Below, piece by piece: positions 8,676-64,000 of a stretch of DNA of 64,000 bases (the stretch's first letter is position 1; every line of letters begins with the position of its first letter). The notes beneath the pieces were generated by a model that ran no database searches, was not told the DNA's origin, and saw only the letters and a program-made list of their open reading frames with translations. A program made the position numbers and the translations under genes. Origin of the DNA: Methanobacteriota archaeon (GTDB lineage: Archaea > Thermoplasmatota > E2 > DHVEG-1); the NCBI GenBank assembly GCA_963769885.1, contig CAVYNH010000006.1:608001-672000 (forward strand), in the 5' to 3' direction.

Positions 8676-8688
8676 GTAGGCCTCCATC

Positions 8689-8728
8689 GGGGCATCCAGG
8701 ATGCCCCCCCCCTTCTATTTTTTTTATT
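8689..8728 (+). terminator. Inverted repeat plus T-tract, putative terminator
   Basis: GGGGCATCC-A-GGATGCCCC followed by a long T run just after the stop codon at 8675. Confidence 0.65.
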
Positions 8729-8886
8729 AAAAAGAAATTATCTTAATATGCCCATGCCATCCCTTGCTCGTATTTTCATACAATTTCTTTCCCTGTTCCG
8801 GTTTTTTTTGCTGTTTGAATATTTTCTGTAATAAAGAAGAGTCGAGATTGGATTCCGAGCCTTACTAAAGCATCACAGATGATGAA

Positions 8887-9006
8887 TCATAGGCCTCCTT
8901 CTTCGTAGTAGGATGTTGAACCGCAAGAGGTTCGATTTTTCCTTGCGTCCACCTGCTGCATCAGGGGTATCGGGAACCAAAAAATATATGGCTTCTCTGC
9001 CGTCAT
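8887..9006 (-). pseudogene. Truncated duplicate of the RHH gene 5' end
   Basis: MTAEKPYIFWFPIPLMQQVDARKNRT versus MTTKKLYNFRLPIPLMQQVDSVCDNRT; the upstream DNA (catcccaatcc on the + strand) is also shared. Confidence 0.7.
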
Positions 9007-9109
9007 CCCACATCCCAATCCAATCATCCGCAATCCAGCGATACTTAATAAAAAACCTCGTTGACGCCAATAATCTACGGAAGAAAAACAAGCGAGGGGG
9101 GACTCGTGG

Positions 9110-9712
9110 TCACGCCTTGGGTTTTTGCACCCACCAATCCCATTCTTGACTATGGAAATCCCAGCCGAAACGCTCAACCACCGCTCGGATGATGCCCGGG
9201 CATCCGGCAGTGAAGTCATGGCCTGCCAAGACACCGCCGGGAGCCACCTTCGGCCACCATAAGTCAATGTCTTCTAAGACATACTCATATTCATGATTTC
9301 CGTCAAGGTAGACAAAGTCTAATGGCTCCTGGATGACGGCGGCTGCTTCTTTGCTCGTCTGACGGAGGAACACGACCGACCTATGCTTCCGCTCCAGCTT
9401 CTTCAACTTGTTGACGCACCCTGAGAAATCCGATGGCTTCCCTTCCTGATCGACGTATGGCGTCAGCGGATCGACGAGGTAGTACTTCCCGAGGTTCAAC
9501 AATTTCAGGTTCGCCTGAGCGTTGAACCCGCCAGCCACGCCAACCTCCACCGCCGTCAAAGGATGATCTATCTTCAGATTTTTGACGAAGAGCGTGGCGG
9601 GGCGTGGGTCAAGGACGATAGGGGAGAACGAGCTCTGGTATTTGTGATATCCCATCAGCAGCTTTATCCCGATATCGATGGCCTGCAGAGGCTTCTTCTT
9701 TAAGGGAAGCAC
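9110..9712 (-). CDS. Class I SAM-dependent methyltransferase (Methyltransf_24-like)
   Basis: VEVGVAGG, DFVYLDGNHEYEYVLEDI..WWPKVAPGGVLAGHDF motifs. Confidence 0.88.
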   Translation of the reverse strand: MLPLKKKPLQAIDIGIKLLMGYHKYQSSFSPIVLDPRPATLFVKNLKIDHPLTAVEVGVAGGFNAQANLKLLNLGKYYLVDPLTPYVDQEGKPSDFSGCVNKLKKLERKHRSVVFLRQTSKEAAAVIQEPLDFVYLDGNHEYEYVLEDIDLWWPKVAPGGVLAGHDFTAGCPGIIRAVVERFGWDFHSQEWDWWVQKPKA

Positions 9713-9823
9713 GGAGCCGTACTCCTCGGATCAACTTTCTTCACAGTCTCTTGAAGGCACCTGCCCGGATTATGGATTTTCATCACTACGGAAATTCAGT
9801 GAGGGATTTTAACCTTACTTGTA

Positions 9824-9897
9824 AGCCGCTGGAGGGATTTGGACCCCCGGCCTGCTGATTACAAATCAGCCGCTCTTCCGGGCTAAGCTACAGCGGC
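9824..9897 (-). tRNA. tRNA-Thr(TGT)
   Basis: GCCGCTGTAGCTTAGCCCGGAAGAGCGGCTGATTTGTAATCAGCAGGCCGGGGGTCCAAATCCCTCCAGCGGCT forms a cloverleaf with anticodon TGT. Confidence 0.93.
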
Positions 9898-10929
9898 AGG
9901 CTCTTTCGTAGCGGTAATGTCCATTCCTATATAAAATTCTCTAGCCGAATAGGATTTGAGCCGACGCGCCCGGTCCCGTTCGATGCGAAACCCCGTGCCG
10001 GCAGCGGTCGTCGTCAACGCACGCCATCGTGCCTCGATCGCCTCCTCCGCGAGGATATCATAATAATGAAGAATACACTCATCCGCCGCGACCGACAGCG
10101 CCGCTCCCAGGAAGGCATGCGCGGAGAACGGCAGGTTCATGATGATCCGATCGACCTTCCCTGGGACGAGCCGCGCCACATCCCGCGCGTCGCCCTGGAT
10201 GACCTCTACGCGGTCTCCCACCTGGTTCAAGACGACGTTTCGCCGCGCGAACTCAACAGCCCTCTCGTTCTTATCGATCGCATACACCACCACCGGATGC
10301 GCGTATTTCGCGATCATGATGCTGAACGGGGCGACCCCCGCAAAAAGATCCACGATTCGTTCCCCATCCGCTACGCAGCCAGCGACGCGCCGCCGCTCAT
10401 TCGACAACCGAGGGGAGAAGTAGATGGACCCGACGTCGACCATGAACCGCACCCCGTACTCAAGATGCGTCGTCACCGTGTCCTGGGCGCCGGCGATGAC
10501 CCGGCATCCGCGGACCCGCAGCTCCCCGGTGACTGGCTCGACCTGGCAGACGCTCCTCAGATGAGGGTTTGTCTTCAACATGGCCTCTCCGACCCTTAAG
10601 GCATAGCGGTCCAGTTCCTCGGGGAGCTTCACCAGGGCGATCGCGCCCACAATATCATAGGAGGTGGGGAGGAGGCCTTTCAAGGCGGCAGGGATGGCCG
10701 CAGCATCCTGGTACGACGGGGTCCTTTCCTGTCGCGGCTCGAAGGCATGCTCGATGATCTCCCCAAAAGGAGCCGGCGATGGCCGACGGGAGATGGGGAA
10801 GAAGATGTGATGCTTGGATGTAATCAGGCGGAGGTCGTGGCGGAGCAACCCTTGGCTCTGGAGCAGCCGGCGCGCCTCCTCCGCTTGCAGGAGGGGGACG
10901 CGGAGCCCAACGCTTCGTACCTTCGCCAT
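9883..10929 (-). CDS. trm5: tRNA (guanine37-N1) methyltransferase Trm5/Taw22 family
   Basis: SYDIVGAI, YFSPRLSNERRR, DLFAGVAPF, IMNLP motifs and an N-terminal D1-like domain. Confidence 0.85.
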   Translation of the reverse strand: MAKVRSVGLRVPLLQAEEARRLLQSQGLLRHDLRLITSKHHIFFPISRRPSPAPFGEIIEHAFEPRQERTPSYQDAAAIPAALKGLLPTSYDIVGAIALVKLPEELDRYALRVGEAMLKTNPHLRSVCQVEPVTGELRVRGCRVIAGAQDTVTTHLEYGVRFMVDVGSIYFSPRLSNERRRVAGCVADGERIVDLFAGVAPFSIMIAKYAHPVVVYAIDKNERAVEFARRNVVLNQVGDRVEVIQGDARDVARLVPGKVDRIIMNLPFSAHAFLGAALSVAADECILHYYDILAEEAIEARWRALTTTAAGTGFRIERDRARRLKSYSAREFYIGMDITATKEPAAVA

Positions 10930-10985
10930 CACCCCGGGTAATCTCCCCGGGGTATTTCAAATGAACCACCGTGAAAAAGAGGGAG

Positions 10986-11075
10986 TCCCGCCTCCCGGAT
11001 TTGAACCGGGGACCTGCCGGTCACGGCCGATAGGGTCTACAGCCGGCCGCTCCAGCCAGACTGAGCTAAGGCGGG
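10986..11075 (-). tRNA. tRNA-Tyr(GTA) with a ~15-nt intron at 37/38
   Basis: CCCGCCTTAGCTCAG...GCCGG-CTGTAG-[ACCCTATCGGCCGTG]-A-CCGGC...GGTTCAAATCC...GGCGGGA. Confidence 0.93.
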
Positions 11076-45410: not shown

Positions 45411-45597
45411 AGGTGTTGTTTTTCCCCCACATGCCTGATATTAACGATTGTTAATATATATAGCTTGTGTGCCCTCGCTTTGTGGTGTTTATCCCGAGTG
45501 CGTATTTAAAACTATCAATGGAGTACGAGAGGGGATTCCTCACGTTAGACGAGGCGTCGGATACCGGCTTTGTACTGACATGTCCGTACCTGTATGG

Positions 45598-46488
45598 TCA
45601 CGACGCGGTCATATTGACTGTGAAGCCGGCTGCAATGGCGGAGCCGAGGTAGCATTTCTCGCCGCCGTCCTCGCTCATCCAGATCTTGATGCCGCTGAAC
45701 TCATACAAGGCTGGACAGGCGAAGTAGGTCTCGTCGAAGCGGACTTTTCCTGGCAGGCTCCCGCGTAGCTCGCCGTTCCTGATCCTGGGGCCGAGCAGGC
45801 CAAGCGTCGTCGCCCAGCCATCGGCATAGACATAATCGGTACGAAACCAATTATACAGCCCGACGCTGAAGAAATCCGCGACCGCAACAGGATTGATATC
45901 CACCCGGTAGACGAGGGCCTCCCCGAAGCCTTCGATTGCACCGCCGATTGCCATAAGGATTGATCCGATGATGCCAGGATAGGGATGGGCGGTTAAGAGG
46001 ACACTGATGAGGAAGATGGCGATGCCGGTCATGATGATGATGAAGGGCAGCGGCCGGCCGGTGTACGTCAACGTGGTATGCCCGGCGACGAGGCAGAAGA
46101 GGTTCAAGTCCACAAGCCCTGCCGCCTGCGGGTTTCTCTGCCCCGAAGGCTCCTCTCGGTACCACCGTGTGACGAGCCCCTGCGCCTGCGCAAGCGAGAG
46201 GCCGCCGAACACCCCGTACGGGTACAGTCGGGCCACGGCCGAGGTGTAGGCCTGATAGCGTTCCGCGGTCGTTGTGGCAGTGCCGGCGTCTCGGTTGACG
46301 TCATCAATAATTTCACGGATCTCTTGAACGGCCGCCTCGGAGAGGGTCACGCGGGACTGCTGGGGGCCTGTTGCGCCGGTCAACTCAACAGTAATCTGAC
46401 GTTGGGTATCTGCGGCGGTGAGCGAGGGCCCGAGCGTCGCACACAGCATGATGCCTGCAAGGATGCTGCCGATCAGTCGTCTCATCAT
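45598..46488 (-). CDS. Hypothetical secreted/membrane protein
   Basis: Signal peptide and two internal TM segments; tightly coupled to the upstream NosD gene. Confidence 0.72.
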   Translation of the reverse strand: MMRRLIGSILAGIMLCATLGPSLTAADTQRQITVELTGATGPQQSRVTLSEAAVQEIREIIDDVNRDAGTATTTAERYQAYTSAVARLYPYGVFGGLSLAQAQGLVTRWYREEPSGQRNPQAAGLVDLNLFCLVAGHTTLTYTGRPLPFIIIMTGIAIFLISVLLTAHPYPGIIGSILMAIGGAIEGFGEALVYRVDINPVAVADFFSVGLYNWFRTDYVYADGWATTLGLLGPRIRNGELRGSLPGKVRFDETYFACPALYEFSGIKIWMSEDGGEKCYLGSAIAAGFTVNMTAS

Positions 46489-46489
46489 T

Positions 46490-47593
46490 CTATCTTCCTC
46501 CCAAAGCATCGTCAGGGTAGGGGCTCTGGGCTGGCGAGAAATCATGCATCGTCCACGACACCCCCGGGGCTCCGAACCACGACAACAGTTCACTGAGAAT
46601 CATCGTTCCATAGATCGCCTTCTTGCCGGAGACGGGCTGCTCCCAGTAGTTCCCGTCCCATTTCACCAGCTGCAAAGAGACGATGAAGGGAACCTTGACC
46701 CGGTCCCATAGTGAAAACGAGAACACCGCATCTTCGTTGTCCTGGATGAACGTGTTCTCCTTGACCTCGCAGAGGATCGCATGGTCGATGTTCACCCCGA
46801 TGCGGTTCCCCGTAATGTTATTCCTCAGGAGGAGATGGTCGTCGCCGGTGATCATGACGCCGGTGTCTGAGCCGGCGATGTAGTTTCCTTCGGCATCGCC
46901 ATGATCGAACCAGCCGAGGGCGACCTGCGGGTTATCTATGAAGCGGTTCTGCCGCAGCATCGAGTCGCCTCCCCTGTACCCATACCCTGTATTACCACTG
47001 ATCGTGTTGTTCGTGATGAGGCCGCCGGATCCTTCATCGTCGATCCCCAGCCCAGTGTTGTTCCGGATGAGGTTATGGTCGATCGTGTTTTCGTGTGAGA
47101 CCCAGATCCTGATGCCATCTTGATTGCATTCGATGATGTTATCGCAAATGACGTTCCGATTCGAATTGTGCAGATACACCCCGTATTGATAGTACCCGGT
47201 GCTGTTCCGGATGGTGAAGCCCGACACCTGGCTGGCGCCCCCGGAGAGCAGGACGCCATGCCCCGCCGCCATCGCATCAATGACCGTCGTACTCTTGTTT
47301 TCCCCCATCAAAATCACGCTGTGGCTCACCACAACGCGCTCACGGTAGAGCCCGGAGAACACATACACGGTGTCATTCGCATTGGTATGGTTGACGCCGT
47401 CCATGATGTGCTGGAACGGATGCTCCAGCGTCCCTTCCCATGGCCCCTGCGTGTTGTCATCGTCGACATAGATCGTCTGCGAACCCGCAGGACTCACAGC
47501 CTTTACAGGATTCACAGCGACCACCGCGAAGGCGGACTCAAGGCAGACAAAACCGACGACGAAGACTGCGACAAGGCCACGGAAAGCAACCAT
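46490..47593 (-). CDS. NosD/parallel beta-helix secreted protein
   Basis: TIYVDDDNTQGPWEGTLEHPFQHI, beta-helix repeats, WDGNYW. Confidence 0.88.
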   Translation of the reverse strand: MVAFRGLVAVFVVGFVCLESAFAVVAVNPVKAVSPAGSQTIYVDDDNTQGPWEGTLEHPFQHIMDGVNHTNANDTVYVFSGLYRERVVVSHSVILMGENKSTTVIDAMAAGHGVLLSGGASQVSGFTIRNSTGYYQYGVYLHNSNRNVICDNIIECNQDGIRIWVSHENTIDHNLIRNNTGLGIDDEGSGGLITNNTISGNTGYGYRGGDSMLRQNRFIDNPQVALGWFDHGDAEGNYIAGSDTGVMITGDDHLLLRNNITGNRIGVNIDHAILCEVKENTFIQDNEDAVFSFSLWDRVKVPFIVSLQLVKWDGNYWEQPVSGKKAIYGTMILSELLSWFGAPGVSWTMHDFSPAQSPYPDDALGGR

Positions 47594-47773
47594 CAGCTAT
47601 CCTCCCTACTCACAAACACAAGCGCCTTTGCCGTATTTAAATGATACCACCTCATTATTTAAACACCACATACGAAAAGAAAACGAACACACCGACCTCC
47701 ACTATCACCGACGAAAATCGGAACCCTTATAAGCCAACAGAATTTCAACTACACTTCGGGGAGACGACAAGAG

Positions 47774-49687
47774 ATGGCAACCACTCATGATGCTGACACC
47801 CTTTTGCGTTCACGACTCCCACCCATCCAGTACCACAAACTCACGGCGATCGCCAACCCCGCCGTCCACGACTTCATCGCCACCACCATCCACCACTGCA
47901 ACCCCGCCACCGTGTTCGTCAGCACCGACTCACCCCACAACCTCGCCGCCATCCGCCAGGCCGCCATCGACACCCACGAAGAACACCCCCTCAAGACCCC
48001 CGGCCACACCATCCACTTCGACGGCCCCCACGACCAAGGCCGCGACAAAGACCACACCAAATTCCTGCTTCCACAAGGAGTCGACCTCGGCCCCGAAATC
48101 AACGCCCTCGACCGACAAACCGGCCTCCAAGAACTCCACACACTCCTAGAAAACATCATGGCCGGCCACACCCTCTACATCAAATTCTACTGCCTCGGCC
48201 CCGCTAACTCCCCCTTCACCATCCCCTGCCTCCAGCTCACCGACTCCGCCTACGTCGCCCACAGCGAAGACCTCCTCTACCGCCAAGGCTACCCCCACTT
48301 CATCCACCACCCCAACGCCCCCGTCTTCAAGTTCCTCCACTCCCAAGGCCAACTCCAACCCGCCGGCCTCGGCCTCATGGTCAGCAAGAACATCGACCAA
48401 CGCCGCGTCTACATCGACCTCCAAGACGAAACCATCTACAGCATCAACACCCAATACGGCGGCAACAGCATCGGCCTCAAAAAACTCGCCATGCGCCTCG
48501 GCATCCACCGCGGCAGCCAGGAAGGCTGGCTCACCGAACACATGCTGCTCATGGGCATCCGCGGCCCCAACAACCGCCTGACCTACCTCGCCGGCGCCTT
48601 CCCCAGCATATGCGGCAAAACCTCCACCGCCATGATGAACGGCGAGACCATCGTCGGCGACGACATCGCGTTCCTGCGCAACATCGGCGGCGTCTGCCGC
48701 GCCGTCAACGTCGAGGCCGGCATGTTCGGCATCATCGAAGGTATCAACCACACCGTCGACCCCCTCCAATGGGATGCCCTCACCAAGCCCGCCGAGATTA
48801 TCTTCTCCAACCAGCTCGTCACCACAGACAACGACGTCTACTGGAACGGGCGAGACAAACACCCGCCGGCTGCGGGCGTGAACTTCACCGGCGACTGGCA
48901 CCACGGCAAAACCGAAGCCAACGGCAAAATCATCCCTCCGTCGCACAAGAACGCCCGGTTCACGTTCAACCTGGCCATCCTCCCCAACGTCGACCCTGCC
49001 TTGCACGCCCCCAACGGCGTTGAGGTCCAGGCGATTGTCTACGGCGGCCGGGACTCGGACACCTCAGTGCCAATCGAGGAAAGCTTCGACTGGACCCACG
49101 GGCTCATCACGAAGGGCGCCTTCCTGGAGTCGGAGACGACCGCGGCCACGCTGGGCGCCGAGGGCGTCCGCGCCTTCAACCCTATGTCCAACCTCGACTT
49201 CCTCTCCATCCCGATCGAGCGGTACATCGAGGACAACCTGCGGTTCGGCGCAGGCCTCCGCAAGCCGCCGCGGATCTTCGGCGTCAACTACTTCCTCAAG
49301 GACAAGGACGGCGCATGGCTCTCCGAGAAGAACGACAAGGCGGTCTGGCTGAAATGGATCGACCGCCGCGTCCACAGGGAGGTCGAGGCGATCACCACGC
49401 CGACCGGGATGATCCCCCGGCATGGCACGCTCGAGAAGCTCTTCGCCGAAGTCCTACAGAAGCAGTATCCGCTGGAGACGTACCGTCGGCAGTTCACAGT
49501 CCGGGTCAGGGAGAACCTCGCCAAGATTGACCGGATGACGACGATCTACAAAACCCGCGTGATGCACACGCCGGCGGTCCTCTTCTCTATCTTGGAGGAG
49601 CAGCAGCGGCGCCTCCATGAGGCCCAGGCCACGTACGGTGATTACATCGCTCCCGAGCAGCTATGCCGTCGTGAGCGGAGCGGTTAG
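47774..49687 (+). CDS. pckG: Phosphoenolpyruvate carboxykinase (GTP)
   Basis: QLTDSAYV, YGGNSIGLKKLAMR, WLTEHM, GAFPSICGKTSTAM, VGDDIA, HKNARF, VNYF motifs. Confidence 0.96.
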   Translation: MATTHDADTLLRSRLPPIQYHKLTAIANPAVHDFIATTIHHCNPATVFVSTDSPHNLAAIRQAAIDTHEEHPLKTPGHTIHFDGPHDQGRDKDHTKFLLPQGVDLGPEINALDRQTGLQELHTLLENIMAGHTLYIKFYCLGPANSPFTIPCLQLTDSAYVAHSEDLLYRQGYPHFIHHPNAPVFKFLHSQGQLQPAGLGLMVSKNIDQRRVYIDLQDETIYSINTQYGGNSIGLKKLAMRLGIHRGSQEGWLTEHMLLMGIRGPNNRLTYLAGAFPSICGKTSTAMMNGETIVGDDIAFLRNIGGVCRAVNVEAGMFGIIEGINHTVDPLQWDALTKPAEIIFSNQLVTTDNDVYWNGRDKHPPAAGVNFTGDWHHGKTEANGKIIPPSHKNARFTFNLAILPNVDPALHAPNGVEVQAIVYGGRDSDTSVPIEESFDWTHGLITKGAFLESETTAATLGAEGVRAFNPMSNLDFLSIPIERYIEDNLRFGAGLRKPPRIFGVNYFLKDKDGAWLSEKNDKAVWLKWIDRRVHREVEAITTPTGMIPRHGTLEKLFAEVLQKQYPLETYRRQFTVRVRENLAKIDRMTTIYKTRVMHTPAVLFSILEEQQRRLHEAQATYGDYIAPEQLCRRERSG

Positions 49688-49877
49688 CTACCCACTCCGC
49701 CCACAAAAATAACGCATTTCGGACGCAATGAATAACTATTTAAGAGGCCCACCTCCTCTCCCTATCTTGTAAGAAGAGAGAAGTAAGAATTTCGTGCCCA
49801 GTCTTTTCCGCCGGGGTTTTTATTTTTTTTGACTTGCACGCCTTCAGACCACCCAGCGGCTGAGGAGGTGACCGACC

Positions 49878-49952
49878 ACGGTAACCGACAAGAGACGACA
49901 CGACCAAAAACAGCGCAAGAACAAGATTCAACGGAAGAGCGCGAAGTTCTAA
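49878..49952 (+). CDS. Candidate 24-aa Lys/Arg-rich micropeptide with ACG start
   Basis: SD GGAGGTGA, then ACG GTA ACC GAC AAG AGA...TAA = (M)VTDKRRHDQKQRKNKIQRKSAKF, followed by a T-rich terminator. Confidence 0.35.
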   Translation, partial: TVTDKRRHDQKQRKNKIQRKSAKF

Positions 49953-50067
49953 GCAACCACCCCTCTTTTTTTCTTCTCTTTCATAACCATCTCAGAAGTA
50001 TGCTGGAAAAAATAAAAAAAAGAAAGAAAAGATCTTAGCAAAAAAACGAGTAACTCGGATTTTTCGA

Positions 50068-50208
50068 CTAGTATCTTTTTGGTCTATGATTCTGGAAGCA
50101 CTCCCGGCAATAGACCGGTCGGCTGCCATCCGGCTTGAAGGGAACTTGCGCTTCCTTGCCGCAGTCTGCACACGTCACGGTATGCATTTCTCGATTTTCG
50201 TTATACAT
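50068..50208 (-). CDS. CxxC-x17-CxxC zinc-finger small protein (46 aa, not in the ORF track)
   Basis: MYNENREMHTVTCADCGKEAQVPFKPDGSRPVYCRECFQNHRPKRY. Confidence 0.92.
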   Translation of the reverse strand: MYNENREMHTVTCADCGKEAQVPFKPDGSRPVYCRECFQNHRPKRY

Positions 50209-50360
50209 GTTTTTTCCTATGACGTACCGAAATACGTCCTGCCACTACTACGCAGAGGTGGTATTAATAGCTATGGGGTCTGAGATCACGGTTGGTCATG
50301 GTATACCCGGATACGCGGATGACAATCAGGGTCTTTTTTTTTAAGAAAAAATATGGGGGG

Positions 50361-54111: not shown

Positions 54112-54266
54112 GTATCCTAGATGGTCAGAAATAAATGATGTACCCTAGATGGTACATCGATATGAAAACCAGTACTATGGAGGATACACAGTAGAGATTT
54201 TTTATCAGGGACGAAGTATAATGCTCGTGAGGAGCCATGAATCATGCGGCACTTACTACCGGGTCA
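54112..54266 (+). repeat. Cluster of 16-bp quasi-palindromic sites
   Basis: GTATCCTAGATGGTCA (54112), GTACCCTAGATGGTAC (54140), GTACTATGGAGGATAC (54172), ACTTACTACCGGGTCA (54251). Confidence 0.7.
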
Positions 54267-54432
54267 GATTGATGAAAAACCCCCCCCACCACACTCCACC
54301 GTCACCCGTATGAGCCTCACCTCCTACGACGGGCCCGATTTCCTTTACGGTCTCCACTCTGGAAAAACGTGCGCGTCAATATGCGCAGCAGCCGTCAATA
54401 TATCATTATTCCAGGACGCCGTAACGTCCTTT

Positions 54433-56265
54433 TCATGGTGCCTGTTTTGGCGTCCTGTCGATGTTGGTGACAGGGATCTTTATCGTGTGGTAGTTCGGCC
54501 AATCTCCGTACGTAATCCGGATTTCCCCATGGATGATTTTCGGTTGAGATAGAGGTTCGCCCCAGTAATTATGAGACCAATGGTTCCATAAGCAGTTTGT
54601 GAAGGAGGCTGGCTCATCACCGCAATTAACAAACGAGTTGCCTCGCATAATCATCACCCGGCAGGACGTGAGCGTAATGGAACCGTTGCCGTCCGTGACG
54701 GTATTGTCTCGGACAAACCCTAGTTTCACGCGAGTCAAAATGATACCACGGTCACCAGCCGGGGGGTGAATGTCATTCTTGATGATTCGGTTTAGGATGC
54801 CGTATTCCACGGCGATGACTCCTTGCTGGAGCGCATTATTCTCAACGAGGGCATTGTGGCATACGCTTAACCCGATGCCGCCCGATTCAAACACATTGTC
54901 CCGGATGATGACGTGCCGTGAGGAGCTGCAGATGAGCCGGCTATACACATTCGTATAGGTTCCATGGACGATGTTGTTGACGAACTTGACGTTCGTGCTC
55001 CCTCCGATAGCGGCTTCGCCTAGATCACTGGAAAACCCAAGATCGTTGTGCACGATTGTGGTATCGTGGCAGTTTCTGACGTCGAGGAGGTTGAAGAAGA
55101 TCTCCCAGCGGCTGTCACTTATGGTATTATCGCTGATGGTCGTGCCCTTGCAGTTCTCCAGGGTGATGCTGGAGAGGCAGGACGTTAGGTTGTTATTCGT
55201 GATGACGCAGTCGTTGCAGTTCCAGCACTGAACCGCGAGATTCGCATCGGTGAGTACCGAGTCGCGGATGGTGATGGCGGTGCAGTTGATGAGGATGACT
55301 TGGCCCCCGTTCTGGGTGATTGTCTGGTCGGTCTCCCTCTCTAAATAGCGGATGGGGGCGCCGTTGAGGAGGTTTCCTGTCATTGTGTTGCCGTAGCATT
55401 GGTAGACTTCGAGGCCGTCATGGACGAAGACGTTGTCGGTAATCTCGCAGTCGGTACACATACCCATGCCAAGACCGGCGACCGTGTTGTTCTCGCAGAG
55501 GTTCCCGTGTATCTGTGAGGAGTTGGATAACACAAGGCAGATGCCGTATTCATTGCCGATCAGGATGTTGTCCATGATGTGTGTTCGTAGTGAGTCGTTG
55601 GCGTAGATGCTCATTTCGTCTTCATTGGTGACCGTGTTGTTGTCGATGGTGTTGTCTGGGCAGGCGAAGAGTTCGACTTGGAGGTCAAAACTTGAGCTGC
55701 GGATGGAGTTGTGGGTGATGCGGTTGAAGGTCGAGTCGTGTTCCAGCCGGATGCTGATGCCGTTCCACCGGAAGTAGCTCTCGCTGATGAGGCAGTGTGA
55801 GGAGGCGTTGAGGCGGATGCCCAGTTCGCTGGTTTGGATGACGAGGTCGGTGAGGATGACGTTGTTGGCGTGGACGTTGATGCATGCAGGGTACGGCCAC
55901 CATTCGGCGGTGTTCTTTATCAGAAATTCTTTGATGGTGACGCCGTCGGTGGTGACGTGTATTGTGTCGGCGGTGTCGTTGCCGATGATGATTGTCGAGT
56001 TGCGGTCTTCTCCTTGGAGCGTGATGGTTTTTGGAATGGTGAGGTATTCATAGTATGGTGCGGAGTCGTTGAAGACGTAGATGGTGTCGCCATTGTTTGA
56101 GGCGTTTATGGCTTGTTGGATGGTGGTGTAGTTGCCGGGTCCGCTGCCGCCGACGTACAATGTCGCTTCCATGCGTGCATCATCGTGTGGATTGACGCCT
56201 TGGGTTGGTGTGACACAGCTGAGCGTTACCAGTATGCTTGCCACTATGACCATAAATCCTTTCAT
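54433..56265 (-). CDS. NosD/parallel beta-helix secreted protein
   Basis: TLYVGGSGPGNYTTIQQAI, long beta-helix, HNYWGEP. Confidence 0.9.
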   Translation of the reverse strand: MKGFMVIVASILVTLSCVTPTQGVNPHDDARMEATLYVGGSGPGNYTTIQQAINASNNGDTIYVFNDSAPYYEYLTIPKTITLQGEDRNSTIIIGNDTADTIHVTTDGVTIKEFLIKNTAEWWPYPACINVHANNVILTDLVIQTSELGIRLNASSHCLISESYFRWNGISIRLEHDSTFNRITHNSIRSSSFDLQVELFACPDNTIDNNTVTNEDEMSIYANDSLRTHIMDNILIGNEYGICLVLSNSSQIHGNLCENNTVAGLGMGMCTDCEITDNVFVHDGLEVYQCYGNTMTGNLLNGAPIRYLERETDQTITQNGGQVILINCTAITIRDSVLTDANLAVQCWNCNDCVITNNNLTSCLSSITLENCKGTTISDNTISDSRWEIFFNLLDVRNCHDTTIVHNDLGFSSDLGEAAIGGSTNVKFVNNIVHGTYTNVYSRLICSSSRHVIIRDNVFESGGIGLSVCHNALVENNALQQGVIAVEYGILNRIIKNDIHPPAGDRGIILTRVKLGFVRDNTVTDGNGSITLTSCRVMIMRGNSFVNCGDEPASFTNCLWNHWSHNYWGEPLSQPKIIHGEIRITYGDWPNYHTIKIPVTNIDRTPKQAP

Positions 56266-56532
56266 AGTTACGCTTCCTCAGTGTTTTTTTAAAGAATATT
56301 CTCGTATTAATATTTTTTCTTATAAAATAATTCGTCTTTATAAGAAGGGTTGTATGTGATTTCTTCAAACCATCGTGCGTGTTGAAAGGATTCGATATTT
56401 TCAGGAAGCCGCATAGGGTCAAAGGTGCAAAAAGGAGAAGTCGCTTCAGAAAAATCGAGAAATAGAGATTGACCTCATCCCCTGGTGCAGGTACCCCCAG
56501 TCGGAGTACGCTTTCACCTGGTTCGTGTCGTT

Positions 56533-57603
56533 TTAGTATGGCTGGAATGGTGTTTGGGCGGGTCGCCAGTCGAATGCCACTCGGGTCTGGGGCACTACCT
56601 CGGTGATTGCGAAGATGTAGATGCAGAATATAGTAAATCCGAAGATGGGATGCGGAAAGAGGCTGGGTTTTCCCCAGTAGTTATGTCGCCAGTGTGATGC
56701 CTCGATGACTTTGTAGTCCTTGAAATATTGGTTCCAGGATTGGTTGATCATCCCCCGTAGTTTGTAGATTGCTTCGCTTATGGGGCCGTTGATGAACCGG
56801 GCGCCGGTTCCCGCGTCTTTAAAGTTGTTTTCGGTGACGAGGTCTTTGCATAGGATGAGTCCTATGCCGAGCTCTGAGTGGTTCATGGTGTTCCGTTGGA
56901 ATGTGTTGTGATAGCCCCATTCATCAATGATGCAGGTGCCTTCATCGGTGAAGTAGTTCGAGGAGATGTTACTGTCATGCGTATATTCGAGGATAATGCC
57001 TCTGCTGTTTCCTTGGAAGGTGTTGTGTGCGATGGTGGTCTTGCGGACGCCTGAGCATCGTATCCCGTAGCTCACGTCGATGAAAGAGGAGTGGTCGATC
57101 GTGTTCCCTTGGAGGAGCGGTGCGGTCCGGTTGTAGTCACTAATGTAGATGCCATACGCGCCTCTCTCAAAACTCATGTCTGAAATGAGGTTGTTGTTCG
57201 TATAGATCTCCAAGGCAAATCCATTCGAGATGGCGATGAGCGTGATGCCGCTGATGGTGACGTTGTCTGCTAGGATTCTGATGAGAGGACTGTACGGACC
57301 AGGGTATGGGGCTGTTCCATTGAGGATTGTGGTCTGTCGCTGTTCGCCGAGTAGCGTGATGGAGTGGTTGACGAGGACTGGTTCTCGGTACGGCGCGGAG
57401 TCGTCGTAGACGAAGACGGTGTCGCCGTCCGTGGCTGCGTCGACCGCTGCTTGGATTGTGGTGTAGTTGCCTGGGTTGCTGCCTCCGACGTAGAGCCATG
57501 TGGAGAGCGGTGCGTTCTTCGGTGTTGGTGTCATCCCTACGGCGGGGATTGCAAGGCAGACGGTCACCAGCAGTACACAGACGATTTGTTGAAGCTTTGC
57601 CAT
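56533..57603 (-). CDS. NosD/parallel beta-helix secreted protein
   Basis: WLYVGGSNPGNYTTIQAAV, HNYWGKP, FDWRPAQTP. Confidence 0.9.
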   Translation of the reverse strand: MAKLQQIVCVLLVTVCLAIPAVGMTPTPKNAPLSTWLYVGGSNPGNYTTIQAAVDAATDGDTVFVYDDSAPYREPVLVNHSITLLGEQRQTTILNGTAPYPGPYSPLIRILADNVTISGITLIAISNGFALEIYTNNNLISDMSFERGAYGIYISDYNRTAPLLQGNTIDHSSFIDVSYGIRCSGVRKTTIAHNTFQGNSRGIILEYTHDSNISSNYFTDEGTCIIDEWGYHNTFQRNTMNHSELGIGLILCKDLVTENNFKDAGTGARFINGPISEAIYKLRGMINQSWNQYFKDYKVIEASHWRHNYWGKPSLFPHPIFGFTIFCIYIFAITEVVPQTRVAFDWRPAQTPFQPY

Positions 57604-57925
57604 TCTTTCTTCCCTTTTATTATAAATGAAGGGTGGATATTAAAAAGTATGGGTATAAATAAGAAAAGGTGGTTTTAAAAGGTAAATAATAGCCTAGTTT
57701 CTTTCTTGGATGTCTCCCGTGTGCATGTCATGTAATAATGAGAATGTACTTCTTGCTTGCTTCTGGCTTTGGGAGAGTGGGTATTTTGAGACAACGCCGA
57801 ATTCATTCACATAGCCAAAATTAACAGGGTACTCTTCATGGTCAAAGATTCAAGAAAGTGAAGTAACGTAAGAAAAAGAGAATAATATAAATATTAGGAA
57901 AGAATTATTTTAATGAAGATTCCAA

Positions 57926-59234
57926 ATGAAAAAAATGATTATCCGCCAGAGTATTGCGATATTCTTGGTGGCTTTACTCTTCCCTACCGTCTTCGTTCCT
58001 CCGATGTCTCCTCTCGCGGCACGCCACGTTCCTCTAGGAAGCAGTCCCCTCTGCTCAAACGACAGCTGCGAGCTGGATCTGCTCATCGGTGAGATTAATT
58101 TCTCCATTCTTCCACCAACGCCACCGCATCCGTTCAACATCTCATATTCTTTGCCTCCAATCTACAACAACCAGGCGCCCATCCTCGTTTCCATCTTGAA
58201 TGACACCACGGCGGACATCCTCAAGTACGCCATTATCAATGACACTGAGCCGAATGTGCGCATCACCTTCCTGATTTCCTCAAACGCGACGCCAACAGCT
58301 CCGTTCCTCCATTTCATGTTTTGGGTTCTCGGTACAAAACAATGATTTCAGTGGGTTTGTGAACGATTCACGGATTCCGACGCTAGACGAACTGCCCGAG
58401 GAGACCAAGGCATGGCTTGCCGCGACAGAGGCTGTGCAATCCCATAATATTCTGATTCGCATGAAGGCCCACTCGCTCCTCCTTAGAACCGACTGTCTGA
58501 ACGTGCTTGCCGCACGCATTGTGAAATACACCTCGCTGCATGAGATGCGGCTTTGGCTATGGTATTTCTTTAACGCCCTGCCGACGAACACCCGCTCGGG
58601 ATGGGCCAAATACTTGGATGCCGCATCGTCGTTGTTCTTCGGAGGAACGTGCACGGGCAGAGCCAATCTTGGCACCGCGCTCTTCCGGGCGAACGGCGTA
58701 CCCGCCAGAGTCCTTCACGTCATGCCAACATGGTCCAGCGGGTGGTACGATATGCATTACATCAGTGAGTATTACAGTCTAGACAACGGCTGGGTCCTTG
58801 CGGAGACTGTGTTGGGCATCACCCCGTTGGAACAAAAGCAGAATATCATTCTGCGGGTGAACTATCCCGCGGATGAGGATACAGCAGGTAATCGAGGGGA
58901 CTATTACGGCGGATGTGAACCGTGGTTTTGGATGGATGCCAACGTGATGATCTATTGGACTCACCAGGGGTCCGGTGCGCAATCCTGGCTTCATAATGCC
59001 TTGTGGACAGACAACGACACAAGTGCTCAAAGCTTGGCCATCACGAAGATGGTCTATCCGATGTTCATCAAATACGCAGGGGTGGAATTGACTGGGGAGA
59101 ACCAGCACCATTACTCCAATGCGATTCTTGCTGAGGTGAGTGCCATCAACTGCTTCACCCAGTTGGACATCACTGGGTACCTTGCGAACATGACGCTAGC
59201 GTATCAAGAATTTTCTCAGATATCGTACCCGTAA
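57926..59234 (+). CDS. Secreted transglutaminase-like protein, split by a +1 frameshift near 58331
   Basis: The signal-peptide ORF joins the second ORF via TGG GTT CTC G GTA CAA AAC; motifs GTCTGRANLGTALFRANGVPAR, MHYISEYY, GWVLAE. Confidence 0.78.
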
Positions 59235-59290
59235 TTTTTAGTGAACCCCTTATGGTCAACCCTATAGGGATGGTTTTATAATCTATGAAG

Positions 59291-59325
59291 GTTATCATCT
59301 TTGATAACTAACATATATTTATATA
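59291..59325 (+). promoter_or_regulatory. Palindromic operator plus TATA box upstream of the AbiE pair
   Basis: GTTATCA-TCTT-TGATAAC, then TATTTATATA. Confidence 0.6.
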
Positions 59326-59349
59326 CCTTGAATGCCCATACATACGCAT

Positions 59350-59931
59350 ATGCCAATTATGAAGTATCAAGACCAACTTCACACCGTCCTTCAAAAACCA
59401 GTCTTCGGCGTCAGCGATTTCGTCGCAAATGGCATCCCTCGACCTTACGTAAAACAACTCCTTCATCGACTGGAAACCTCGGGTAAAATCACCCGCATCG
59501 AACGCGGCAAGTACACCACCTCAGAAGACCCGATTACCGTCAGCGTCTACCTCACGAGCCCCTGCTACCTTTCCATGTGGACCGCATTGTCCATCCGCAA
59601 ACTCACGACACAGCTACCGTTCTCGGTTGAAATCGTCACGACACGTCAACGATATCGGCGAACAATCACATTCAAAGGAACTCCCATTGTCTTCTATCGT
59701 GTTCGCCCGACGATGCTCTATGGCTACGAGAATATCCTGTGGAAAGACCATCGAGTTCCCGTGGCACGGCCGGAGAAGATTATCGTCGACGCCCTCTACT
59801 TCCACGCTATACCGTTAGGGGAACTCGATGAGGTCTTCGACGCAGCTGAGCATAAGCTCTTGCGGACCTATGCGCAGATGACGGGCGATGCCCGTATCAT
59901 CGCCATCATAAAGGAGCGGCTCGCATGTTGA
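59350..59931 (+). CDS. Type IV toxin-antitoxin AbiEi-family antitoxin
   Basis: wHTH (LLHRLETSGKITRIERGKY), YLSMWTALS, ARPEKIIVDALY motifs. Confidence 0.85.
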   Translation: MPIMKYQDQLHTVLQKPVFGVSDFVANGIPRPYVKQLLHRLETSGKITRIERGKYTTSEDPITVSVYLTSPCYLSMWTALSIRKLTTQLPFSVEIVTTRQRYRRTITFKGTPIVFYRVRPTMLYGYENILWKDHRVPVARPEKIIVDALYFHAIPLGELDEVFDAAEHKLLRTYAQMTGDARIIAIIKERLAC

Positions 59932-60662
59932 CGTCACCAGAGGTTAAACGCTATGCCCATGCCCGCCGTATCACCCTGCTTGACCAGGCATGGAAGGACT
60001 ACCTCCAGGACCTTGTCCTCTCGCTGCTCTACCGTCAGTGGCCCAGTCTCCTGTTCCGCGGTGGAACCTGCATCTGGAAGGTCATGCACGGCGACCGGTT
60101 CTCCGAGGACCTCGACCTATGCCTTGAGACGAAGGCGCCTGGTACGATTGAGGAATACCTCACCAAGGAGCTCTCGTACTATGGGTTTTCCTGCGCAGTC
60201 CGGAGGAAGAAGCAGACGGAAAGCATGCTGTTCCTCGCCTTAGGAATCACCTCGCCTACGCACCCGCGTGAAATCACGTTAGCGGTTGAGATCCTGCGGG
60301 CATCTCCCTGCGCCCGGCGCAAGGAAACCGTGACGATGTACTCGCCCTATCCGGATATCGCGCCTATTGAGATTAATGTCCCTCATCGAGATGAGATCAT
60401 AGCTGACAAGATAGGCGCGGTATGCCAGCGGGACAAGCCGCGCGACATCCACGACCTTTATCTCCTCCTGAAACAAGGTGGGCATGTTGACATGGTATTG
60501 GTCCAAGAAAGGATCCCGCATTTCACTATCGATATGCTTCGGGAAAAACTTCGGGAGAAAAAGAGACTCTGGAAAAGTCTAGGACCCCTTGTCGTGACGA
60601 AGCTGCCATCGTTCGATGAGGAGGTCGCTTACATCACATCTTTTTTCGCATGTGGCTGTTAA
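59925..60662 (+). CDS. AbiEii-family nucleotidyltransferase toxin
   Basis: KDYLQ, FRGGTCI, RFSEDLD, ADKIGA..RDKPRDIHD motifs. Confidence 0.9.
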   Translation: MLTSPEVKRYAHARRITLLDQAWKDYLQDLVLSLLYRQWPSLLFRGGTCIWKVMHGDRFSEDLDLCLETKAPGTIEEYLTKELSYYGFSCAVRRKKQTESMLFLALGITSPTHPREITLAVEILRASPCARRKETVTMYSPYPDIAPIEINVPHRDEIIADKIGAVCQRDKPRDIHDLYLLLKQGGHVDMVLVQERIPHFTIDMLREKLREKKRLWKSLGPLVVTKLPSFDEEVAYITSFFACGC

Positions 60663-60856
60663 TTCCTATAAAATTCTGCCCTTTTTCATATAAACAAATT
60701 CAATGTATCCTGGAGGGTCAGACCTAGAAGAATCATTACATTGACCCCTACATTTTTGTAATAATATGATACTATTCATATTTTGTAGAAGTAATTTTTT
60801 TTTTATGTCGATTGGCTATTTTTCCAGTTGTCTTCACAATAGGGATGAAACAATAA

Positions 60857-60908
60857 ATACCTCTACTTTTTTTTAAAATACAAAAAGTTTATTAATTTGT
60901 AGAGGTAT
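60857..60908. promoter_or_regulatory. Inverted repeat flanking the Fic promoter
   Basis: ATACCTCTAC (60857-60866) ... GTAGAGGTAT (60899-60908) around an AT-rich TATA region. Confidence 0.6.
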
Positions 60909-60918
60909 ATTGATAATC

Positions 60919-61824
60919 ATGGTGTTTGTGAAAAAGAAAGTCGTCCAGGGGAAATCCTACTATTATCTCGAGCACAGCTATCGGAAGGATGGAAAAGTCC
61001 ACAAACTCACAAAATATCTTGGAACGACACTACCCCCCTCTCTCGACCACGAAAAAGAGACGTTCCTGGTCAGTCACTATCAAGAGATCTGGTACCCCCT
61101 TTTCGAGATTATTAAGAAAAACTATACGTCCGAGCAGGTAAAACAACCGCGGGATATTGCGAAAAAAGAAATGGAGCGTTTCACCACCATGTTCACCTAT
61201 ACGACGAACCGTATCGAAGGATCAGCCCTGACCCTGCGCGAAACAGCGGAACTCCTCGAACATGGTTTATCTCCCCGGCATAGGCCACTGAGTGATGTGA
61301 AAGAAGCGGAGGCGCATAAAGCCGTCTTTAACGCGATGCTTACCTATGATCACGAGCTGAGCCTTTCAACGGTTTTGCACTGGCATAAAAACCTTTTTTC
61401 CCAGACCAAAGCTTCCGACGCCGGTCGCATCCGCACGTACCAAGTCGGCATCTCAGGTAGTAGATACGAACCACCTCTCCCGATAGAGCTTGAGTTCCTC
61501 CTCCATGAGTTCTTTCACTGGTACCATAAAAACAAACACACCATGCATCCGGTTCATCTTGCAGCACTCGTTCACTTACGGTTTGTCAGCATCCATCCTT
61601 TTGGAGACGGGAACGGACGCCTGTCTCGACTTCTGATGAACTATGTTTTGCACAAGTATGGATATCCCATGCTCATCATCGATTACAACCAACGGCATAG
61701 CTATTACACAGCGCTTGAACGTAGTCACCTCACGAAGGATGAGAGCATCTTTGTCCAGTGGTTTTTCAAACGCTATTGCAAGGAATACAGAAGGTTTTTA
61801 CAGGAAAAAAGAAAAGTCAAATAA
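60919..61824 (+). CDS. Fic family protein
   Basis: HPFGDGNGRLSR catalytic motif; TNRIEGS inhibitory-helix-like motif. Confidence 0.95.
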   Translation: MVFVKKKVVQGKSYYYLEHSYRKDGKVHKLTKYLGTTLPPSLDHEKETFLVSHYQEIWYPLFEIIKKNYTSEQVKQPRDIAKKEMERFTTMFTYTTNRIEGSALTLRETAELLEHGLSPRHRPLSDVKEAEAHKAVFNAMLTYDHELSLSTVLHWHKNLFSQTKASDAGRIRTYQVGISGSRYEPPLPIELEFLLHEFFHWYHKNKHTMHPVHLAALVHLRFVSIHPFGDGNGRLSRLLMNYVLHKYGYPMLIIDYNQRHSYYTALERSHLTKDESIFVQWFFKRYCKEYRRFLQEKRKVK

Positions 61825-61901
61825 CTGCTGCCTATGCGGTACCAGAGATGGCCACACTTACGGGGTACTTGAGATAGCGAAATCGACTGGCAGAACAACT
61901 T

Positions 61902-63098
61902 TCAGCGTAAAAAAATGGGGAAAACGAAGCATAGAAAAACGCACGCCTTCCCAGTAATTGTTTCATTCGCAGCGGTCACGGTAAGTCTGGTCAGGCCAAA
62001 CCCAACAACCTTGTCGTTCACCTGGACATCGCCCCATGCCGGAATCGTCTCATGAAACGGTTTTTCCTTGGGGAACACAAAGCCAGTCACTGTCATCGTT
62101 CCGTTGATATTAATTGGCATTCCACCGTTGTTATGGATGGTTGCGGTGATGCCAAGGCCTCCCTCGATGCTGATCGTGATATTGTACGGGATGGCGAAGG
62201 ACCGGTAGTGTGGTACTTCGCGGTTCCCGGCGTTGTCGACAGAGTAAAACATGAGATGATGATCGCCGGGTTCACTGACTTGGAAAGGATGGGTATAGTT
62301 GGTCACCGGGCCGCCGTCCAATGAGTAGACGGTGTAGGCTACTCCGGAATAATTATCGAATGCGGTGAGGATGACTGTTATGGTATTGGTCCCGTGCAGT
62401 TGGCACGTCGTGACTGGGGGTACGGTGTCGTTTTCTGTGATATGGACTTCAAGATTCCAGTTGCCCCAAATCCCCTGCGCCAGAAGCTCAGTCCAGTAGG
62501 TCAGCCAGGCCAAGTCGCCCTTCGTGGGGGTGCACGTATTTTCATCGTAGCCGCCGGGGTAGGTGCCGACCGGTGCGTCCCAGCCGACACCGACCCAGAC
62601 CGTATCATTCTCCGTGAAAGGATAAGGGTCTGTCAGGTTGAAGTAGAAATAGTCATTGATGACATCGCAGAAGCCGGAGGCGACCATCGTCGTGTTCTCT
62701 GTAGGGCTGGGCGGGTGATCGACGCCGGTGTACATCCAGGCGGTATAGTTTTCCTCGACGCAATATTCATCGGGTTGGGTCGGGCAGCCGTGCATGATTT
62801 TAATCTTGTCAAAAGCTCCGTGTAAACCTGCAAGTTCGGTTGGCGTGAATTTGATGATTTCATATAACGGTATTTCAAAACCTTTTGCCCATCCAATCGC
62901 GTTCTCACAGGTGCCGTCATCATAATGCAGGTAATAATCAGTTGAGGATGGCGCTGCAGTACCTGCATGGAGCCAGACGCCGGTTTCGTATGGTTCTGCC
63001 ACAGTGCAGAGAGTGTTGTTGGAGTTGATTGCCACAGCTGCTGGGATTGTCGCGAAAAGTAAAAGAACGATGACGGTACCAGCTGTTTCCTTTTTCAT
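61902..63098 (-). CDS. Secreted protein with Ig-like/OmpL47-type domain
   Basis: Signal peptide, LHYDDG..ENAIG, DTVPPVTT...YSLDGG...FYSVDNAGNRE. Confidence 0.8.
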   Translation of the reverse strand: MKKETAGTVIVLLLFATIPAAVAINSNNTLCTVAEPYETGVWLHAGTAAPSSTDYYLHYDDGTCENAIGWAKGFEIPLYEIIKFTPTELAGLHGAFDKIKIMHGCPTQPDEYCVEENYTAWMYTGVDHPPSPTENTTMVASGFCDVINDYFYFNLTDPYPFTENDTVWVGVGWDAPVGTYPGGYDENTCTPTKGDLAWLTYWTELLAQGIWGNWNLEVHITENDTVPPVTTCQLHGTNTITVILTAFDNYSGVAYTVYSLDGGPVTNYTHPFQVSEPGDHHLMFYSVDNAGNREVPHYRSFAIPYNITISIEGGLGITATIHNNGGMPININGTMTVTGFVFPKEKPFHETIPAWGDVQVNDKVVGFGLTRLTVTAANETITGKACVFLCFVFPIFLR

Positions 63099-63337
63099 TG
63101 AACTCCCTCTTTTCCCAACAAAATCATCGTCGAGACGTGATATAAATATTTCTATTGTCAAAGAAGGTTATGTGGGATTTTTTTAGATATTATTTTCCTT
63201 TAGGGAAAAATAAAGTAATTCTCTGATTTTCCCGAATCTAAAAAAGGTTTACAATCAATTTTTTTTTAACTACTAACCAGAGGGCAGCCTACACGGTCAA
63301 GATAAGATGGAAATGAGCAGTTTTCGTAATCGTGCAT

Positions 63338-64000
63338 CTAGTTCAAATCAATCTTATATGGCTTCATCAATGGAAACCGGTCTGAGCCAATTATTGCGTT
63401 CGATATCTTGAAGGGTAAGAATCCAATCCCGTCATGGTTGTAATCCACGATCTGTGGATGTTTTAATCCGGGATAGTCATCCCAATAGTTTCCAATGCAG
63501 TGCCCAAGTGAGAATTTCCACCAAAAATTACAACATTCATCGTATGCATTGTCAGCGTTTCCTATGAAATTATTGCAATAGAAAAGATTGTAATTTGAGG
63601 GAGTTTGGTATACCAATGAGATAAAGAGATACACACCCCAGTACGAATTGTTAGTGATATTATTGCAACAGATCGTATTCTCATTGGACTGGTAAAACCA
63701 TAAGCCTACTTGGTTATTCGTTATTTCATTATTTCTAATGATGTTGTGGTAGTCACCAGCATAAAATTCAATGCCCGCACTTTGATTTGAGATATGATTT
63801 TTGCCTATGAGGTTGTTGTCGGCACCACGGAGCAGCAGTACTCCTTCACCAGCATCTTTGAAAATATTCCCTGTGATTGTATTATGGTCTACCCTTCCGA
63901 TGACAATGCAGACTCCATCCTGAATCCCCCCTGCCCTGAATGTATTATTTATGACGAAAGTGAACGATGCTTGAATATAAATTCCGCATCCATCGTAAAT
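63338..64000 (-). CDS. 3' part of a NosD/parallel beta-helix secreted protein (starts beyond the window)
   Basis: NNFIGNADNAYDE...GNYWDDY...DYNHDGIG..DRFPLMKP. Confidence 0.82.
   Translation of the reverse strand: MYDGCGIYIQASFTFVINNTFRAGGIQDGVCIVIGRVDHNTITGNIFKDAGEGVLLLRGADNNLIGKNHISNQSAGIEFYAGDYHNIIRNNEITNNQVGLWFYQSNENTICCNNITNNSYWGVYLFISLVYQTPSNYNLFYCNNFIGNADNAYDECCNFWWKFSLGHCIGNYWDDYPGLKHPQIVDYNHDGIGFLPFKISNAIIGSDRFPLMKPYKIDLN

Follow-up and report, generated by a model that had tools for sequence, protein, structure and literature searches.

To our knowledge, integrons are the only well-understood means by which single genes are captured and stockpiled by site-specific recombination, and they rely on one enzyme family, IntI, acting on folded attC sites. 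The attC sites are imperfect inverted repeats of 57-141 nt that fold as single-stranded hairpins, with R''/R' cores of the form RYYYAAC / GTTRRRY. Integrons have also been described in archaea (Ghaly et al. 2022, PMC9668308), again with canonical IntI and attC. In a 2021 review of archaeal tyrosine recombinases (PMC8371274) the word 'cassette' has no occurrence and integrons are cited as bacterial examples only; the same review gives the dif site of archaeal XerA as two 11-nt inverted repeats around a 6-nt spacer. Here we describe a locus in the genome of an archaeon, partly contained in a stretch of 64,000 nt (the window), in which two types of short direct sites, termed L and R, appear to bound gene modules on either side of a gene for a XerA-like tyrosine recombinase and to behave like recombination sites, as the original prediction from the window had supposed for the L-type sites.

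The window comprises positions 608001-672000 of contig CAVYNH010000006.1 (C6) of the source genome (G000), which has seven contigs, a size of 2.09 Mb and a guanine-plus-cytosine (GC) content of 54%. Coordinates with no contig label are those of the window. L018 and L019 are metagenome contigs, the other L-numbered loci are recombinase-bearing loci (L001 starts at the window end and L003 covers a locus on contig C4), and G001 is a genome of the same genus. Genes were taken from crude open reading frame (ORF) calls. GC was 0.58-0.60 in the housekeeping part of the window, 0.46-0.52 in the array and 0.30-0.40 just past the window, and the low-GC tract coincided with an island of ~21 kb that extends from 54.1 kb in the window to ~C6:683.5 kb. 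The array continues past the window, and a second array with another motif lies on the far side of the recombinase gene, neither of which had been foreseen. The order along the island is ~10 L sites, the recombinase gene in the middle and 4-5 R sites, with one or two sites per intergenic gap, all on the recombinase's strand. The modules that they delimit measure 0.6-2.4 kb, five of the units being 1118-1446 nt. Toward the recombinase, module GC was 0.51, 0.50, 0.50, 0.515, 0.43, 0.49, 0.40, 0.37 and 0.33 (genome, 0.54), a fall that would be expected if new DNA enters at the recombinase-proximal end. An Rfam search of the island gave no match, indicating that the sites are not a known RNA family.

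The L-type sites have the form GTACC-N6-GGTCA, with the canonical form GTACCC-N5-GGTCAAAGCTA. All nine of the 16-mers listed in the original prediction are present in the window, and seven of them stand as real sites; the copy at 56406 is weak and the one at 61853 is noise (Table 1). A position weight matrix (PWM) from the listed sites found a lone further L copy on another contig, at C4:122742. An independent PWM was trained on five sites outside the window (C6:672547, C6:673133, C4:122742, L018:20 and L019:650), and the ~4.17 million positions of the source genome, on both strands, were ranked with it. Six window sites came within the 38 highest ranks (Table 1), which confirms the sites as real. 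Among the 17 best non-training matches, five fell inside ~1.56 kb of + strand intergenic DNA (3.7e-4 of the positions), a clustering with P ~1e-13 by a simple binomial estimate. A chance pattern arising from a hand-picked degenerate consensus was rejected by this out-of-window ranking. The strict consensus GTAYCC-N4-DGGTCA has three copies in the 2.09-Mb genome, two of them in the window array. In the rest of the window, matches of at least 15 bits were few and lay within coding sequence on either strand, and the housekeeping gaps were free of sites, as had been claimed.

The nine strong L sites are all intergenic and all on the + strand, and the modules that they separate point both ways (four - and four +), so the sites face one way regardless of gene direction. 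They also occur in convergent gaps (54.1 and 61.8 kb), another feature that had been noted correctly. The distance from site to start codon ranged from 73 to 240 nt; the sites hold no fixed place relative to promoters and are not oriented with the gene, which speaks against an ordinary transcription factor regulon. A degenerate R-like box lies 3 nt upstream of the L sites and a degenerate L-like box follows one R site, and the L and R motifs may be halves of one longer ancestral site. An 'empty' fused site, GGTCAAAGCTAGCAATWC, was searched for in 101 family genomes with up to two mismatches and gave seven matches, which is chance level, a reversed control giving a similar number.

The original prediction had found no recombinase in the window and had proposed a system acting in trans. 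The first statement is literally true, but a XerA-like tyrosine recombinase gene lies 4.5 kb past the window end, and the second does not stand, since this cognate gene is in cis, 3.3 kb past the last L site, and close homologues carry the same sites. The protein matched PF00589 (4e-34), and its best NCBIfam model was XerA_Arch (NF040815), at ~135-136 bits against a cut-off of 220. That cut-off is reached by none of 26 genomes of the lineage and is therefore uninformative for it. The catalytic R, H-x-x-R, H and Y were invariant in an alignment with homologues, the closest solved structures were XerA 5hxy and 4a8e (Thermoplasma and Pyrococcus), and no protein of the source genome outscored the recombinase against XerA. 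The integron-integrase models gave 69.4 bits (TIGR02249, cut-off 265, matched over two stretches that leave out the insert region) and 31.6 bits (PRK15417, cut-off 435). A homologue at E <=1e-60 was found in just 9 of 108 family genomes, and an exact-protein look-up returned no record. When remnants of the gene were sought by tblastn against C6:650-690 kb at E = 50, the intact gene alone was found.

The region 5' of the recombinase gene is conserved and contains GGTCA, then TGACC, then a 12-7-12 inverted repeat, and the repeat region is kept even in 54-56%-identical homologues. This recombinase-proximal palindrome has CCCYAGATGGT in common with window sites 54112 and 54140. Two hairpins (z = -3.2) were found in the same region (L001:4440-4530, C6:676440-676530), and in the second the loop contains the Shine-Dalgarno-like bases GGTG while the stem includes the start codon ATG, an arrangement that suggests translational control of the recombinase. 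A second homologue subfamily (45-62% identical; L030, L035-L037, L041, L043, L044 and others) is without the conserved upstream palindrome; in its place, a small conserved gene (..MHDLTGRNVEKRAVMELIIYFE..) immediately precedes the recombinase gene.

Right of the recombinase, every gap contains the R-type motif CTAGCAATWCYAMT (Table 1). A paralogous recombinase, 86% identical in protein sequence, is encoded at C4:123922-124917, and at the DNA level the two loci are homologous only over the recombinase gene and ~130 nt upstream of it. The canonical L site on C4 lies 1.2 kb upstream of this second gene, with a TIR-domain gene between them, and two R sites lie downstream. The entire C4 system (C4:122742-129202, L003:7742-14202) thus reads L site, TIR-domain gene, recombinase, a 498-aa gene of no assigned function and two R sites, in a tract of 30-43% GC. 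Genome-wide there was one other intergenic R match with at most one mismatch, on C7, and it is probably due to chance.

The canonical 17-base L pattern was found with zero mismatches solely at C6:673133, C4:122742, L018:20 and L019:650, and all four copies precede, on the same strand, a gene for a close homologue of the recombinase. PWMs trained on the source genome alone were then run on 35 independent metagenome loci. The eight loci with a recombinase at least 79% identical (63.5 kb) contained two L matches upstream and nine R matches downstream, all on the + strand, and one further stray - strand match inside the recombinase gene. In the 190 kb of the 27 loci whose homologues are 45-69% identical, there were no L or R matches. 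L029, which has a 53%-identical homologue and long flanks, carries an array of its own, consisting of four same-strand intergenic GTAAC-N6-GTTAC sites with the 5-6-5 layout of the L sites and other arms. These results show that the site sequence co-varies with the recombinase clade. Across 596 Gb of genomes the canonical L pattern had 18 matches, about or below the chance expectation and mostly bacterial, none with a recombinase nearby; two matches on viral contigs were uninformative.

Only one close relative genome, G001, exists. Its recombinase is syntenic and lies between a left flank (window 50014-50277) and a right flank (C6:682048 onward) that are both conserved, and the content between these flanks differs. 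In L019, L018 and G001 the common left flank stops 5 nt before the L site of L019 and the common right flank starts exactly at their first R site, and the three have unrelated DNA to both sides of the recombinase. L019 and G001 have the R1-R2 module in common, and their homology stops at the second R site; the source genome and G001 have a NosD module in common, and homology stops at the R site C6:683429. Inside the window, homology with G001 starts 12 nt right of site 61839. Judging from these alignments, homology breakpoints in relatives fall at the sites. The claim that module breakpoints would coincide with sites was thus borne out, most clearly at R sites and at one L site in a metagenome contig; G001 itself has no recognizable L sites.

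The locus has much in common with an integron. A tyrosine recombinase stands at the array end with its 5' end toward the array, same-orientation sites separate one- or two-gene modules, the modules are mostly 1.1-1.5 kb and rich in toxin-antitoxin, defence and surface genes, and a resident recombinase is combined with cargo that varies from relative to relative. It differs in that the IntI-specific additional domain is missing (TIGR02249 far below cut-off), the sites measure 16-45 bp with no RYYYAAC/GTTRRRY cores in them or their flanks, and the arrays flank the recombinase on both sides, with two motifs and genes in either direction. Single-stranded folding of eight site-centred windows of 76-86 nt gave z = -1.2 to +1.3 for seven and -2.7 for one, which is not the behavior of attC hairpins. 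By its sequence, then, the system is not a canonical integron. With Xer/dif systems it shares a recombinase nearest to XerA, short double-stranded sites with inverted arms around a 6-nt centre and, as in the xerS/difSL type, a conserved palindrome directly upstream of the recombinase gene; module arrays bounded by degenerate copies also recall IMEX elements at dif and the pdif modules of Acinetobacter plasmids. Unlike dif, which is 11-6-11, the L sites have a 5-6-5 layout in which each arm contains 3-5 symmetric bases (8 in one copy), mostly just ACC/GGT, and the recombinase-proximal repeat is 12-7-12. The sites are thus neither canonical attC nor dif, as had been stated. All L and R copies are direct and on the + strand, whereas pdif sites alternate in orientation (C/D, then D/C). 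The recombinase is patchy and duplicated, so it is probably not a housekeeping resolvase.

We consider it fairly probable that the L sites are the left-hand recombination sites of the XerA-like tyrosine recombinase, with modules gained and lost in an integron-like manner. Dimers of the recombinase would attach to double-stranded sites at the short inverted ACC/GGT arms, and a resident site would be recombined with a like site on circular DNA, so that modules would be gained and lost whole. As insertions near the recombinase recur, a same-orientation array would build up, as in an integron. Binding, strand exchange, circular intermediates and recombinase-proximal insertion are steps that we infer from the arrangement of the locus.

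The main rival of the capture of small modules is that the sites are scars of accretion, that is, junctions of the attL/attR type that remained after whole elements with a recombinase of their own had integrated repeatedly, in tandem or nested, at one locus. We regard this as rather unlikely, and the same holds for its corollary that the older recombinase genes and most of the cargo have since been deleted, leaving 'modules' that are remnants and not singly captured cassettes. In both pictures att-like direct repeats bound foreign low-GC blocks beside a tyrosine integrase, and tandem integration of archaeal mobile elements is documented (PMC8371274). Its signature is seen in L029 and L021, distant homologues in which duplicated recombinase 3' ends lie beside repeated site regions of 120-170 nt (L029:933-1102 and 7954-10089; L021:2140-2243 and 4962-5065). 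Accretion would also fit the finding of L sites only on the left side of the recombinase and of R sites only on its right side, as in nested attL...attR pairs, the degenerate R-like and L-like boxes, which hybrid junctions would show, and the degeneracy and differing spacers of the array sites. Yet the search at E = 50 found no recombinase remnant in the C6 array, and decay would have to be remarkably tidy to leave eight units in a row, 0.6-2.3 kb in size, that each retain one or two intact genes. Simple nesting does not predict the unequal numbers of L and R sites either (~10 vs 4-5 on C6, 1 vs 2 on C4, 1 vs 3 in L019), and the recombinase, syntenic in the source genome and G001 while the cargo on both sides differs, looks resident and not incoming. 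Capture of small modules is thus favored by the regular gene-sized units, the lack of recombinase remnants, the resident recombinase with varying cargo and the GC that falls toward the recombinase.

It is improbable, in our view, that the sites are protein-binding marks with no part in recombination, that is, operators or architectural sites that silence or organize acquired DNA; we give as little credence to the binder such marks would call for, an island-encoded protein, for example a small helix-turn-helix (HTH) or AbrB-like protein, or the recombinase as a mere repressor. The quasi-palindrome has the size for a dimeric regulator, transcription units have roughly one site each, several copies are immediately preceded by AT-rich, TATA-like sequence, HTH genes adjoin the last site, and a related inverted repeat in the conserved 5' region of the recombinase makes autoregulation plausible. 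A pure operator role is nonetheless unlikely because sites occur in convergent gaps, where no promoter is expected, keep to one strand whatever the gene direction (P ~0.004 for nine strong copies if orientation were free), stand at variable distances from start codons and co-occur, across loci of unrelated cargo, with the recombinase as the sole protein; the breakpoints of homology in relatives, moreover, coincide with the sites. Very improbable, too, is the view that the recombinase is the chromosome-dimer resolvase of the lineage, with the upstream 12-7-12 repeat as its dif, as in xerS/difSL or xerH/difH, and we hold it just as improbable that the arrays are IMEX-like elements integrated by exploiting that dif. 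The best family and structure matches are indeed XerA, no other protein of the source genome scores better, and the recombinase-proximal palindrome, retained among 54-56%-identical homologues, shares its CCCYAGATGGT with two window sites. The gene is, however, duplicated within one genome, both copies lie in low-GC islands, and it is patchy among relatives (9 of 108 family genomes), all of which makes a housekeeping role unlikely. The L sites, moreover, are not 11-6-11, and 136 bits falls short of the equivalog cut-off of 220 bits, a weak point since none of the 26 lineage genomes reaches that value.

Several observations weigh against capture and loss of modules by the XerA-like recombinase. 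The left and right arrays have different motifs without explanation, and L sites were looked for in G001 and none was convincing, though its recombinase and R sites are present. The central 6 nt vary among the array sites; since tyrosine recombinases normally require matching overlap regions, many copies may be inactive scars or fossil sites. The 3.3 kb that separate the last L site from the recombinase contain five or six genes and no site (the corresponding stretch in L019 is 9.3 kb), which means that some units are not one-gene cassettes. The GC trend might mirror gene origin, the NosD genes being paralogues of the host lineage, instead of age. Neither an alternative array order nor an excised circle or a junction read was found, and a second public contig has the identical gene order. 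Among public sequencing runs, one DNA run and no RNA run contained the locus; the DNA run (share 0.28) yielded 32 short, low-depth contigs with no joints, variants or circles and is uninformative either way.

Table 1. Positions of the L and R sites, the modules and the recombinase gene. Ranks are those from the independent PWM.
Feature	Position	Strand	Remarks
L site GTATCCTAGATGGTCA	54112..54127	+	Rank 5; outermost left-boundary copy; first of a pair 28 nt apart; convergent gap
L site GTACCCTAGATGGTAC	54140..54155	+	Rank 18; with flanks (54137-54158) a perfect 8-6-8 palindrome; sole copy scoring on the - strand too
L site AAGCCGCATAGGGTCA, weak and degenerate	56406..56421	+	~11 bits even in a PWM including it; flanks ..CAGG / AAGG.. 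like those of neighboring sites
L site GTACTCTTCATGGTCA	57829..57844	+	Rank 15; divergent gap
L site GAACCCCTTATGGTCA	59243..59258	+	Rank 9 with a 22-nt independent PWM; 9 nt past the stop of the preceding gene
L site GTATCCTGGAGGGTCA then GACCTAGAAGAAT	60705..60720	+	Rank 4
L site GTACCAGAGATGGCCA	61839..61854	+	Rank 38; convergent gap
Listed site CACACTTACGGGGTAC, rejected	61853..61868	+	5.6 bits even in a PWM including it; background-like, noise
L site GCAGCCTACACGGTCA	63284..63299	+	Rank 20; spacer CTACAC, identical to that of canonical site C6:673133
L site GTACCTTCTAGGGTCA	C6:672547	+	Past window; intergenic; strong match of PWM from listed sites
L site GTACCCTACACGGTCA, canonical	C6:673133	+	Past window; intergenic; last L site, 3.3 kb before recombinase
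Module 1: NosD/beta-helix surface protein, 610 aa	54433..56265	-	PF05048 1.3e-31, PF13229
Module 2: NosD-like protein, 356 aa	56533..57603	-	PF05048 8.5e-15
Module 3: 139-aa ORF and 291-aa transglutaminase-like ORF	57926..59234	+	PF01841
Module 4: AbiEi antitoxin and AbiEii toxin	59332..60662	+	PF13338, PF08843
Module 5: Fic/DOC family protein	60910..61824	+	PF02661 3.1e-21
Module 6: 419-aa protein	61902..63161	-	No Pfam match; deleted remnant in G001
Module 7: NosD-like gene	63338..64000, off window edge, to C6:672459	-	PF05048 1.9e-19
Tyrosine recombinase	C6:676524-677504	+	5' end toward L array; 4.5 kb past window end
R sites (<=1 mismatch, intergenic)	C6:678511, 679510, 681029, 683429	+	Downstream of recombinase
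R site (2-mismatch copy)	C6:683469	+	Downstream of recombinase
R sites (<=1 mismatch, intergenic)	C4:126441, 129189	+	Downstream of C4 recombinase

The gene content of the window modules was as originally described, with three NosD/beta-helix genes, a transglutaminase-like gene, AbiEi/AbiEii, Fic and one protein with no family match (Table 1). The two ORFs of module 3 form one 435-aa gene on a near-identical public Logan contig (1308 nt there vs 1309 nt here), and the 1-nt indel is either an assembly error or a real frameshift. The exact AbiEii protein was found on one other public contig, where the gene order is identical, hence no polymorphism. Where the Fic and AbiE modules have homologues in other genera (G014 and G005), these had no adjoining L or R sites. 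The last small module, 547-1148 nt past the window (C6:672547-673148, L001:547-1148), has on the - strand genes for a ParE/RelE-like toxin of 91 aa and its DUF7557 partner of 61 aa, both as called by a gene caller on a public contig of near-identical sequence. Immediately past the canonical L site is an AbrB/SpoVT-like frame (..GAYRIYIGIPIAKAAHF..VRFDYYPGKKRLVIRK; C6:673149-673310, L001:1149-1310) that has no start codon and has in-frame stops just upstream, so that it looks 5'-truncated at the site; a search for the N-terminal half gave nothing convincing, and a similar short remnant follows the L site of L018. Small HTH genes, a Swt1-like HEPN gene and a convergent ~284-aa gene with a weak, below-cut-off DUF7351 match lie between the last L site and the recombinase.

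Upstream of the island, the conserved left flank of the variable region (window 50014-50277, - strand) is a gene for a small CxxC zinc-ribbon protein, which has 73-86% nucleotide identity in many family genomes and several copies within the source genome. Next to it, ~4.5 kb (window 45522-50014) are missing at the syntenic place in G001, which represents another insertion or deletion. At window 10985-11075 ARAGORN called a tRNA of 91 nt whose four-base anticodon (gtag) could not be assigned; it is probably an archaeal tRNA with an intron.

A broader proposition is that the locus is an independently evolved archaeal gene-capture platform, in which a XerA-like enzyme, and not an IntI, would stockpile cassettes of one or two genes in two arrays flanking its own gene, by means of short double-stranded L and R sites that co-evolve with the recombinase lineage. 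We put this forward tentatively, as a possibility more open to doubt than the role of the L sites, and with like reserve we suggest that such a platform might be an analogue of the integron in function, with another enzyme, another site chemistry and a two-sided architecture. If this is true, a Xer-like enzyme with short duplex sites would be a second, independent solution to gene capture, found in an uncultured Thermoplasmata-like sediment archaeon. The recombinase clade together with its cognate L and R motifs would provide a simple signature for finding such platforms in metagenomes, and the compact recombinase-site pair would be directly testable on plasmids. It would also help to explain the turnover of defence, toxin-antitoxin and surface-protein genes in archaeal genomes.

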